Shown here: positions 46,929-58,402 of the stretch, in pieces
Layout: the number at the start of each line of letters is the position of its first letter
Numbering within the stretch: position 1 is the first letter of the stretch
Assembly (NCBI GenBank): GCA_963818965.1
Contig: CAWFUG010000003.1
Span: 8,111-72,110, forward strand
DNA from: an uncultured Verrucomicrobiae bacterium
Lineage (GTDB): Bacteria > Chlamydiota > Chlamydiia > Chlamydiales > Rhabdochlamydiaceae
Direction of reading: 5' to 3'
DNA: 64,000 nt
The notes under the pieces: model-generated
What the model was told of the DNA's origin: nothing
The model's database searches: none
What the model saw: only the letters and a program-made list of their open reading frames with translations
Program-made: the position numbers and the translations under genes

Positions 46929-49238
46929 ATGAAACTGATCTCTTCTTTTTTATTCATGATTACGACTGTCTCCGCGATCGGGATGAGCATGCCTTGTCAC
47001 GCTCGAGGGGAATCGAAAAAAGCGCGCGTGTATAGCAAGCAAGATGCAGCGCAACAAGCGTTATTGACACTGAACCAATACGCCTCCATTCAGAAAGAAT
47101 TGGGGATTCAACAGGCGGATCTCGCATTTGGGATGCGAAAAGCGCTCATCATGGCGGATTTGCTCATCAAATCGGATGGAACGCTAGATTCTGCTTCTTG
47201 TCCGATTGTGAAGTCGGTGTTTATCTCTGAAAATCCGCAAGAGTATGAAGTGAACATGAGTAGAGTCCTCGATCAGCTCGATGCGACGTGGAAGACATTT
47301 TTTGGAGCGATCACAGCCCCGCATGATTCCAATAGCCTGCAGAGCTTAGTCCTCCGCGCCCTGTTTAGTCTCTCTCCCGATCAGGCTCTCACGGATCGCC
47401 AGGCTCGAGTAGCAGTCCTCTCTGCGATGCTCGCTCCCTATAACCAAGGATCTGTCGGCGACTGTTTTGCTGTGACAGATATGATCCGCGATCACCAGGA
47501 ATACTATCTGCATGCGGCACAGGATTACCTAGCGGTAGTCAGAGACGGTTTTGTTACGCGTTCTATCAATGGACACCCTGATTACTTCTTCTTCCTTCCC
47601 CTTTTAGCGGATGGCGATAGAGCACAACCCTTTACCCTCACGGCATCGGCTACCTTCCCTTCTACAGGTCACTCCCTATTCGTCGCTCCTGGATTTACGG
47701 CAGCGCGTGCGCTCATGGGGGGCAGTGGAATTTCTAATTTAGATCAGGCGATGCAAGAGGCGCTCTCTCAGTATGTAGAACAAGGGCAAATGCAAGTTAC
47801 GCCCAATCAAGTCATCGCAGCGATGGCTCAAGCGATCGTCGCTAGTACGGGCAGCGGAGATGCAGACACCCTCTCTAAAGTGGGCGAATACGCTTTTAGC
47901 AGCTTGACCTGTAACCCGATCCTGCGCGGGGTGGAATCTACTTTTGCAGCGATGGCAGAGGATCGAATGAACGACTCGACGCGCGGCAATATCAACGACT
48001 GCGTCGATCAGGCATTAACCGGCCTCTGGAAAAAAATGAGTTCACAGCCGAATTTGAAGACTTTCCAAAAGGCATTCCAGACGGCATTTAACAATTCCTA
48101 TCGCCTCCTTTACAACCTCGACATCCCCTTGGCGCAAGTCTCTGCGGATGGCAGCTCGACGGATGGGGGATTTCAGCTTTACCAGAGGAGCGCGGCAAGC
48201 CCCACTCTATTGGGAAATCGCATGGCGACACCTCAAGACTTCCAAAAACTCGTTCTTGCGGCTATCTCTGCAACAGGCAGTCAGTTGAGTGGGACGAAAG
48301 GGGCTCAGGACATCAGCGATGCCCTCACAGAGTTCGTTCAAACAGATGCCTTCTTAAAACAGGCTCTTTGGGCGTATGATCCTGCAAACAAACAGGAGGC
48401 TGACCCCGTCGGCAATTACCAGAAGTTAAGCCGCACGCCGATGCAGAGCTGCGATGGGGACAACCCATTCGAGGTCGATGATATCGATACGGGAACTTCT
48501 TATGACGGCAATGTCCAAACGTATACGCCGAGCAATGCCAAGGACCTAATCACCTGGAGCCTCAATCTGGCCAAGACTGCGCCCGTTGAGCTCATCCCGA
48601 TGGACAGTCCTCAACACGCATTTAATTTCGTGCCAGGAAATCCCGATCTCGTTGCCTTTGTGAAAGGGAACGTGAATGCAGACCAGTGGGTGAGACAAGT
48701 GATCCTGATGCCGGGAACACAAGTTTCTAGAAAGCAAATCAGCACAGCTACGGAACAGGCGATCGGGAATCAGATGTATGAGTACCTCTCTCAGGCTTTG
48801 CCTGACAGCGGTCCTTATCAACAGCTCGTCGATAGCCTCACTAAGAAACATTTAAGCATCAGGGATTTTGCCAATGGGCTCGTCAATGGCATTAACAAAC
48901 TCCTCGGTTCTGATGCGAATCAGGCCGCGCAGGTAGCTTCCGCTGTCGACTCTGTCTTATTGCAGTGTCTACCCGCGAATGATCTGGCGATCTTGAATCA
49001 GTCGACGATCCGCTTTGCCTTTACCAACTGGAATGAAGGGACAAAGGACATCTACTTCTGCGCCTTTTTCAATCCGCGCACGGAGCTGGTGGGATTCGGG
49101 ACGATCTTTGAAGATAAGACGAACCTCCAGCCGATGGATGAAAATGCTTGGGTCAATCACCAGCAATGGGATATCGATCTAAAACCTTACGTTCCTCAAG
49201 AGGCTTCCAAAGGTGGACTTCAGACTGTAGGGAAATAG
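46929..49238 (+). CDS. Exported 769-aa hypothetical protein, paralog of 55541-58402, with papain-like Cys/His/Asn motifs
   Basis: AGGAGG RBS, signal peptide; NQGSVGDCFA, SPQHAF, FTNW. Confidence 0.85.
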   Translation: MKLISSFLFMITTVSAIGMSMPCHARGESKKARVYSKQDAAQQALLTLNQYASIQKELGIQQADLAFGMRKALIMADLLIKSDGTLDSASCPIVKSVFISENPQEYEVNMSRVLDQLDATWKTFFGAITAPHDSNSLQSLVLRALFSLSPDQALTDRQARVAVLSAMLAPYNQGSVGDCFAVTDMIRDHQEYYLHAAQDYLAVVRDGFVTRSINGHPDYFFFLPLLADGDRAQPFTLTASATFPSTGHSLFVAPGFTAARALMGGSGISNLDQAMQEALSQYVEQGQMQVTPNQVIAAMAQAIVASTGSGDADTLSKVGEYAFSSLTCNPILRGVESTFAAMAEDRMNDSTRGNINDCVDQALTGLWKKMSSQPNLKTFQKAFQTAFNNSYRLLYNLDIPLAQVSADGSSTDGGFQLYQRSAASPTLLGNRMATPQDFQKLVLAAISATGSQLSGTKGAQDISDALTEFVQTDAFLKQALWAYDPANKQEADPVGNYQKLSRTPMQSCDGDNPFEVDDIDTGTSYDGNVQTYTPSNAKDLITWSLNLAKTAPVELIPMDSPQHAFNFVPGNPDLVAFVKGNVNADQWVRQVILMPGTQVSRKQISTATEQAIGNQMYEYLSQALPDSGPYQQLVDSLTKKHLSIRDFANGLVNGINKLLGSDANQAAQVASAVDSVLLQCLPANDLAILNQSTIRFAFTNWNEGTKDIYFCAFFNPRTELVGFGTIFEDKTNLQPMDENAWVNHQQWDIDLKPYVPQEASKGGLQTVGK

Positions 49239-58402: not shown

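Follow-up and report, generated by a model that had tools for sequence, protein, structure and literature searches.

Do two large, unannotated genes of an uncultured chlamydia encode cysteine enzymes of the papain type? The question arose from a stretch of 64,000 nucleotides (positions 8,111 to 72,110 of contig CAWFUG010000003.1, here called the window) of a Rhabdochlamydiaceae genome of 2.24 Mb, which is assembled in 12 contigs and is 88% complete. In the original prediction, two open reading frames (ORFs) of the window, P0001 and P0002, were read as paralogs carrying Gln/Cys, His and Asn-Trp motifs in papain-like order, and an unannotated family of cysteine proteases, deamidases or transglutaminases was proposed. 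We found that the two proteins are paralogs over their full length, that the motifs are strictly conserved in both families, and that P0002 is the ortholog of CT590 of Chlamydia trachomatis. CT590 is a marker protein of the chlamydiae that has been called "hypothetical" since at least 2006, and C. trachomatis transposon mutants in its gene grow poorly; the conserved Gln, Cys, His and Asn in a papain-type context make it a testable enzyme candidate. Our preferred reading, to which we give a probability of about 45%, is that the CT590 family (P0001 and P0002 together) is a thiol-dependent hydrolase with an active site of clan CA, i.e., of the papain/calpain type. The two genes and the elements discussed below are as follows, with lengths in amino acids (aa).

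46929..49238, plus strand: P0001, 769 aa, the predicted exported paralog (ORF, 73 homologs, AlphaFold model)
46929..47003, plus strand: Sec-type signal peptide of P0001, about residues 1-25 with a putative cleavage site (Lys, then a hydrophobic run)
47445..47471, plus strand: Cys box of P0001, Q173-A181 (Q-G-S-V-G-D-C-F-A), with Cys179; Q, G, C, F and A invariant, n=64
48606..48623, plus strand: His box of P0001, S560-F565, with His563; His in 71/72
49023..49031, plus strand: Asn-Trp box of P0001, T699-W701, with Asn700; Asn in 70/70
55541..58402, minus strand: P0002, 953 aa, the predicted cytoplasmic paralog and CT590 ortholog, TTG start (ORF, homologs, AlphaFold model)
57827..57850, minus strand: Cys box of P0002, Q185-A192 (Q-N-I-G-S-C-F-A), with Cys190; Q185, G188, S189, C190, F191 and A192 invariant in 30 orthologs
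57293..57295, minus strand: Glu370 of P0002, an invariant acidic residue in a W-E-F-T-L-A helix (261/261 and 74/74)
56954..57199, minus strand: antiparallel coiled-coil hairpin of P0002, residues 402-483, missing from P0001
56321..56338, minus strand: His box of P0002, S689-F694, with His692; S689, P690, H692, A693 and F694 invariant
55715..55726, minus strand: Asn-Trp box of P0002, D893-W896, with Asn895; N895 invariant in both families

To compare the two families, each protein was aligned with 29 homologs, which for P0002 were taken from the best 120 of 642 (40-54% identity) and for P0001 from all 73 (36-62% identity). The two family alignments matched each other in hhalign with a probability of 99.6% and an E value of 1.9e-24 over 668 columns, which is nearly the full length, and the families are ~17% identical to each other. 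A direct BLASTP comparison of P0001 with P0002 gave two colinear segments, one around the His motif (E 3e-7) and one around the Cys motif (E 5e-5). Hence the paralogy read from the window was borne out along the whole length by both BLASTP and profile-profile alignment. A third paralog in this genome was ruled out, as the three profile matches were P0002 and two pieces of P0001. The TTG start of P0002 was needed because translation from the first ATG would leave out the first conserved block of the family; in the alignment of 30 orthologs, one homolog opens with a similar M-I-V-N... stretch. Fragments of both genes, P0003 (573 aa) and P0179 (428 aa), come from a 56,547-base contig of a near-identical assembly and are the sole copies in the protein collection. 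Short frame-shifted stretches in P0179 are set amid otherwise identical sequence, and therefore indel errors in that assembly are suggested.

Conservation of the motif residues was counted over non-gap cells in an MAFFT alignment of 336 family sequences. The Cys was found in 256/256 sequences of the P0002 family and 71/71 of the P0001 family, the Gln before it in 255/255 and 71/71, and the Asn in 260/260 and 70/70. The His was present in 262/262 and 71/72, the exception being a Tyr. An acidic residue outside the motifs, Glu370, was equally constant (261/261 and 74/74). The order Cys, His, Asn was the same in all members. Thus the motif set of the original prediction, in its papain-like order, was strictly conserved among the 336 sequences with one His-to-Tyr exception.

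The smaller alignments gave the same residues. Among the 30 P0002 orthologs, D893, N895 and W896 were invariant in the C-terminal block, and in the P0001 family (n=30) Q173, G177, C179, F180, A181 and N700 were invariant, with His563 in 29/30. Motif-region alignments were built from DNA references, using every second P0002-type locus that matched the motif regular expression and all matching P0001-type loci. Across both families, the sole invariant columns of the Cys region were Q, G, C, F and A (n=64), the Asn was the sole invariant column of the C-terminal block (n=44), and the His was near-invariant in its block (n=60). A joint full-length alignment of 60 sequences, to which the Chlamydia ortholog (27% identity) was added and from which the aberrant member P0187 was omitted, had 16 invariant columns. 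Eight of these lie in the motifs (Q185, G188, C190, F191, H692, F694, N895 and W896), and Q64, E370 and Y505 were further polar invariants.

Asp893 was ruled out as the third residue of a triad, being Asp in the P0002 family but Phe in 59/70 of the P0001 family. Since Asp893 is not common to both families while Asn895 is invariant, the conserved third residue is the Asn. P0187 (locus L107:4001-6106) is the sole member in which Tyr replaces the conserved His and Ala replaces the Trp that follows the Asn. It has kept the Cys box and may be an inactive derivative. Two P0002-type orthologs have interrupted frames: one contains eight in-frame stops (G195:C1:968015-970582), in a genome with five family matches, and is likely a pseudogene, and the other contains a single TAA (G148:C9:30967-33705), a possible sequencing error.

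The local context of the motifs was taken from AlphaFold2 models run with a 30-row family alignment for each protein. The mean predicted local distance difference test (pLDDT) score was 84.7 for P0002 and 85.2 for P0001, and the predicted template modelling (pTM) score was 0.83 and 0.81, respectively. In the P0002 model Cys190 is followed by a helix at 193-202 (pLDDT 81-90), and in the P0001 model a helix runs from residue 180, directly after Cys179, although the Cys loop itself has a pLDDT below 50. The His adjoins the start of a strand in both models, His692 before strand 693-696 (with strand 685-688 upstream) and His563 before strand 564-567. The Asn895-Trp pair of P0002 is located at the end of a hairpin strand (889-893, paired with 900-905), and Asn700 of P0001 lies within strand 694-703, which forms a hairpin with strand 706-715. 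By the secondary structure of the models, the Cys is at the N-terminus of a helix, the His opens a strand and the Asn is on a later strand, as in clan CA, and Gln185 and Gln173 stand 5-6 residues ahead of the Cys, where clan CA enzymes have the Gln of the oxyanion hole. Large helical insertions separate the motifs, of ~500 and ~200 residues in P0002.

If the family is a clan-CA hydrolase, Cys190 (Cys179 in P0001), at the head of its helix, would serve as the nucleophile, with Gln185 (Gln173) lining the oxyanion hole. His692 (His563), at the beginning of its strand, would act as the general base, and Asn895 (Asn700), shielded by the next Trp, would orient the His. The large helical insertions between these three elements would probably set the choice of substrate. 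The chemistry may be that of a protease, of an amidase or deamidase, or of an acyl- or transglutaminase, which are indistinguishable here. P0002, without a signal peptide, would act inside the bacterium, in line with its ortholog CT590, which appears non-secreted and whose transposon mutants yield fewer progeny, and P0001, with its Sec signal, would act in the periplasm or beyond.

This reading builds on the paralogy of P0001 and P0002, on their conservation and distribution and on the secondary structure around the motifs, from which we infer the fold, the catalysis and the substrate of the CT590 family, and likewise the convergence of Cys, His and Asn in space. Several points weigh against it. 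The Cys loop of P0001, as mentioned, is poorly predicted (pLDDT below 50). Neither protein matched a family in Pfam or NCBIfam, and Pfam had no match at E≤10 to any of the 60 aligned members. Sequence and profile searches of the PDB with the single proteins, the whole family and three motif-region profiles returned no peptidase, but either nothing or kinases and nuclear receptors at E>0.01. Fold searches were made with the whole models of 769 and 953 residues, a length at which a single domain can be missed (above 400 residues): Foldseek gave no match in the PDB at E≤1e-3, and the best 50 rows for each model in a VIA search over 48,161 chains were helical hairpins and bundles with no papain-like chain. 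Among the weak Foldseek rows for P0002 was the peptidase-containing transporter PCAT1 (E ~0.4-0.6 over several hundred columns), and these were not counted.

Searches with profiles of known cysteine enzymes point the same way. With the calpain hidden Markov model (HMM), neither the genome of the window (E≤10) nor a set of 201 Chlamydiota genomes (E≤0.01) gave a match. When the genome was searched at E≤10 with the HMMs of C1, the transglutaminase core, arylamine N-acetyltransferase (NAT) and C39, these found other loci or nothing and never P0001 or P0002; that of papain C1 had no match anywhere in the genome. An hhalign comparison with 14 of 15 chlamydial PF03412 (C39) domains gave a probability of ~1%; the remaining domain, L115, was left out, its first 60 residues being identical to those of L114. 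A genuine Peptidase_C39 domain was found in the genome of the window at the start of a 714-aa ORF (G000:C2:87346-87726, E 1e-34), and similar genes were present in 12 of 61 sampled Chlamydiota genomes. Peptidase_C39 domains are typical of bacteriocin-type ABC exporters.

The comparison with bacterial calpains was partly positive. A degenerate Cys-box pattern retrieved 121 stretches, 80 of them with flanks and 73 with open frames; 38 of 40 that were scanned belonged to PF00648, and 24 were aligned. The Cys-box consensus of these 24 domains is Q-G-x-x-G-D-C-W, and the Gln-x(4-5)-Cys-Phe-Ala of the CT590 family matches its spacing. When the calpains were compared by hhalign with the P0001 family or with the joint Cys region, the best match was the Cys box, with Gln aligned on Gln and Cys on Cys. 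These matches were weak, covering 14-27 columns with E values of 0.006 and 0.0018 and probabilities of 6% and 15%, and their small extent and low probability also count against the proposed active site. So do the failure of the His and Asn blocks to align with the calpain His and Asn in hhalign, and the Asn placed directly before the Trp, where calpains have an N-x-W spacing (N-P-W). The P0002 family alone gave nothing meaningful against the calpains. Since no HMM match was found and hhalign aligned the Cys box alone, we do not place the CT590 family in the calpain family. In the ESM Atlas, the nearest named cluster to P0002 (score 0.81) has Peptidase_C2 in 38% of its members, which we take as a lead only, and P0001 had no usable named match there. 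According to a 2023 survey of the papain-like superfamily in JBC, a triad is often interrupted by hundreds of residues and by large insertions, and homology searches routinely fail for this reason (PMC10318531). The survey tempers our negative searches because split triads of this kind can escape them, and it does not replace them by a positive result. Of the proposal of an unannotated protease, deamidase or transglutaminase family, the motif conservation and the local context stood, and a link to a known family was not recovered by HMM, PDB sequence or fold search.

Could the conserved residues serve something other than catalysis? A non-catalytic scaffold, e.g., a coiled-coil factor of the developmental cycle or of envelope assembly whose motifs are conserved for the sake of folding or binding, would account for the mostly helical models, for the long coiled-coil hairpin and for the lack of a match to any enzyme family, and the two outer-membrane protein genes that stand beside it in a conserved order (in 39 and 51 of 82 loci, described below) could point to a non-enzymatic role in the envelope. 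We regard such a scaffold as unlikely, since polar Cys, His, Asn and Gln that stay strictly invariant at ~17% identity between the paralogs and 27% to Chlamydia are unusual among purely structural residues, and P0001 keeps the motifs yet lacks the coiled coil. A further reading starts from Glu370, whose invariance (261/261 and 74/74) equals that of the triad: together with the invariant Cys and His, and with Gln or Asn, it would bind a metal or form the active site of a different and possibly new fold, and the likeness to papain would be convergent or accidental. It agrees with the lack of a fold or profile link to clan CA and with a calpain likeness confined to the Cys box. However, a structural zinc would have few ligands in one Cys and one His, and the surroundings of the motifs, taken together, are of the papain type: a Gln stands 5-6 residues ahead of the Cys, a helix follows the Cys, the His opens a strand and the Asn-Trp pair belongs to a hairpin. 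We therefore hold a metal site or a foreign fold to be quite improbable, and the clan-CA hydrolase remains the preferred reading.

The original prediction had also suggested that P0002 may correspond to a conserved chlamydial hypothetical protein of about 950 aa, and this was identified as CT590/CTL0853 by profile match and synteny. In the gene table of C. trachomatis, ct590/ctl0853 is entered as "Hypothetical", with 954-955 codons, between uvrB and sdhA-sdhC-tatD (PMC6686042). An ortholog in a Chlamydia-sized genome (L083:4954-7842, a 962-aa ORF) keeps all three motifs and is 27% identical to P0002. Its neighbours are eno, a gene for an rbsU-type phosphatase and two small ORFs in one direction and sdhB, sdhA, sdhC and tatD in the other; in either start variant it had no exact match in the protein collection. 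We consider P0002 the ortholog of CT590/CTL0853 because P0002-type profile matches were found in 28 of 28 genomes of the same family (f4) and the synteny of this ortholog fits the published position of ct590.

Published data on CT590 are few. It was listed as a Chlamydiales-specific signature protein, a 954-aa hypothetical protein with a 989-aa Protochlamydia homolog and mid-cycle expression (Griffiths et al. 2006, PMC1403754). Two independent transposon insertions in ct590 were viable, and at 24 h the progeny of ct590::Tn was reduced by almost 2 log, while at 42 h its inclusions were smaller (PMC6686042). In the texts that our literature searches returned, no paper was found that gives CT590 a fold, an activity or a function. 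The 2006 table gives, as the best non-chlamydial BLAST match of CT590, a 645-aa protein of Porphyromonas gingivalis (E 0.003; PMC1403754). The nearest unnamed ESM Atlas clusters to P0002 have lengths of 622-659 aa, and these and the P. gingivalis protein may be distant relatives outside the phylum.

The two types differ in their distribution among Chlamydiota. A word-indexed protein search found 642 proteins of the P0002 family at E≤1e-3, and an exhaustive profile search found 1220 representatives at the same threshold, 561 of them at E≤1e-30; the best 150 of the 1220 were inspected. In species-representative genomes, 290 of 303 pattern-matched stretches were of the P0002 type. Among the 80 loci listed, all came from metagenome-assembled genomes, about two thirds with chlamydial names and the rest labelled Verrucomicrobia, Acidobacteria or uncultured bacterium. 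A profile search of 200 Chlamydiota genomes, sampled evenly over the phylum, detected a P0002-type gene in 166. It was present in all 28 genomes of family f4, which are Chlamydia-sized (1.0-1.4 Mb, mostly 1.0-1.3 Mb) and were taken as Chlamydiaceae, with nearly full-length matches at E 1e-109 to 1e-177. The gene was scarce in family f7 (4/29) and was not found in f11 (0/2), and as all these genomes are at least 90% complete, the pattern suggests lineage-specific loss or strong divergence.

P0001 homologs numbered 73 at E≤1e-3 in the protein search, with 36-62% identity apart from one fragment of the near-identical assembly, and 23 P0001-type loci were found in species-representative genomes. 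This type is rarer, occurring at E≤1e-40 in 17 of the 200 sampled genomes, scattered across seven families, and it was not found at this threshold in any of the 28 f4 genomes (0/28). The conservation expected across Chlamydiota was thus phylum-wide for the P0002 type (166/200) and patchy for the P0001 type (17/200).

One member had been predicted to carry a Sec signal and the other a coiled coil, and both features were found where expected. P0001 begins with M-K, a 17-residue hydrophobic run and then C-H-A, which is the pattern of Sec export. With an 11-residue Kyte-Doolittle window of at least 1.8 near the N-terminus as the criterion, 29/30 sequences of the P0001 family (P0001 and 28 of 29 relatives, with a basic residue first) passed, compared with 1/30 of the P0002 family, whose single passer has its hydrophobic run away from the terminus. 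The coiled coil is the helical hairpin 402-483 of the P0002 model. A GspF-type (T2SSF) type II secretion gene is present in the window at ~2275-3246 on the minus strand, where the domain matched twice (E 3e-26 and 4e-25); P0001 had been proposed as a possible substrate of such a system. We consider it highly improbable that P0002/CT590 is secreted to act on the host, for instance as a deubiquitinase or deamidase effector: many bacterial papain-like effectors are known (PMC10318531), and CT590 was shortlisted as a type III candidate in a study whose secretion-signal test was inconclusive for want of expression (PMC3931295), but BlaM and GSK assays scored it as 'Not secreted' (PMC13251465, Table 1), P0002 has no signal peptide, and the gene is found in 166/200 Chlamydiota genomes of very different hosts.

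A wider version of the preferred reading is possible, and we put it forward tentatively. The CT590 family may be an unrecognised, phylum-wide branch of papain-type cysteine hydrolases with a triad split by hundreds of residues, in which a cytoplasmic form serves developmental timing and a form exported in some environmental lineages acts on the envelope or the host. If the family is of the papain type, it would be a very divergent new branch of the papain-like superfamily. A protein common to all sampled Chlamydia-sized genomes would also gain a biochemical handle and be a target for covalent inhibitors, as a druggable, bacterium-internal cysteine enzyme shared by pathogenic and environmental chlamydiae. 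If not, the CT590 family stays a conserved structural protein, and its motif likeness is a cautionary example.

In the window, P0002 heads a run of three genes on the minus strand, which is separated from a major facilitator superfamily (MFS) gene by a block that contains P0001. The neighbouring genes are listed here.

54745..55539, minus strand: gene for an outer-membrane protein like the major outer membrane protein (MOMP), directly downstream of P0002 (Pfam Chlam_OMP, E 3e-11)
53328..54596, minus strand: 422-aa signal-bearing protein, third gene of the run, with C-terminal ...Y-G-F (translation; no Pfam match)
52238-53068, minus strand: weak OMP_b-brl gene
50347-52155, plus strand: GMC oxidoreductase gene
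49291-49983, minus strand: OMP_b-brl gene

An internal ATG of the MOMP-like gene lies one base after the stop codon of P0002 and is followed by a signal-like sequence. The MOMP-like gene most likely starts at this ATG, and the one-base spacing fits co-transcription with P0002. The linkage to a MOMP-like gene that was first noted in the window thus proved to be a tight same-strand coupling, and 39 of 82 P0002-type loci show the gene in this downstream, same-strand position. The 422-aa protein probably stands for a family of outer-membrane beta-barrels in environmental chlamydiae that has gone undescribed.

When the 82 loci were compared with the window, a widespread order was seen, with parA and thrS on one strand, then the divergent P0002, MOMP-like and 422-aa genes, an oppositely oriented MFS gene and recC. 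Among these loci thrS was counted in 62, the 422-aa gene in 51, parA in 49, the MOMP-like gene in 39, the MFS gene in 36 and recC in 15, and all these counts are floors because many loci are short. Two Chlamydia-sized P0002-type loci had none of this gene context. In the window, the block 46929-53068 between the 422-aa and MFS genes holds P0001, the OMP_b-brl gene, the GMC oxidoreductase and the weak OMP_b-brl gene. It looks inserted, because the 422-aa and MFS genes are adjacent in several other genomes. The window neighbours of P0001 were not found within 4 kb of any of 23 P0001-type loci elsewhere. In three genomes, judged from contig ranges, both paralogs lie ~15-25 kb apart.

How does the CT590 family compare with known systems? 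Papain enzymes have the pattern Gln...Cys-aromatic-Ala, His-Ala and Asn-(x)-Trp. From papain itself (MEROPS C1, PF00112) the family differs in having no HMM match in the genome at E≤10 and no papain chain among the rows of the fold searches, and it shares the general motif pattern and the local secondary-structure context of the models. From calpain (MEROPS C2, PF00648) it differs in lacking an HMM match and an N-P-W-G box, in aligning over only 14-27 columns with the His and Asn blocks unaligned, and in insertions of hundreds of residues; common to both are the Q-G-x-x-G-D-C-[WF] box, with the Gln six before the Cys in P0001, the order Cys-His-Asn and a Trp soon after the Asn. No positive sequence or fold link to the ubiquitin-specific proteases and other split-triad papain-like enzymes was obtained here, and the ortholog of P0002 appears non-secreted; the likeness lies in the long stretches inserted between the helix of the Cys and the sheet of the His and Asn, which are described as common in the papain-like superfamily (PMC10318531). 

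CT590 of C. trachomatis differs from P0002 in sequence (27% identity), the Chlamydia gene lies away from thrS and the porin-like genes, and a P0001-type paralog was not found in the 28 Chlamydia-sized genomes; it shares with P0002 a near full-length profile match, the three motifs and, in the Chlamydia ortholog, the placement between rbsU and sdhB.

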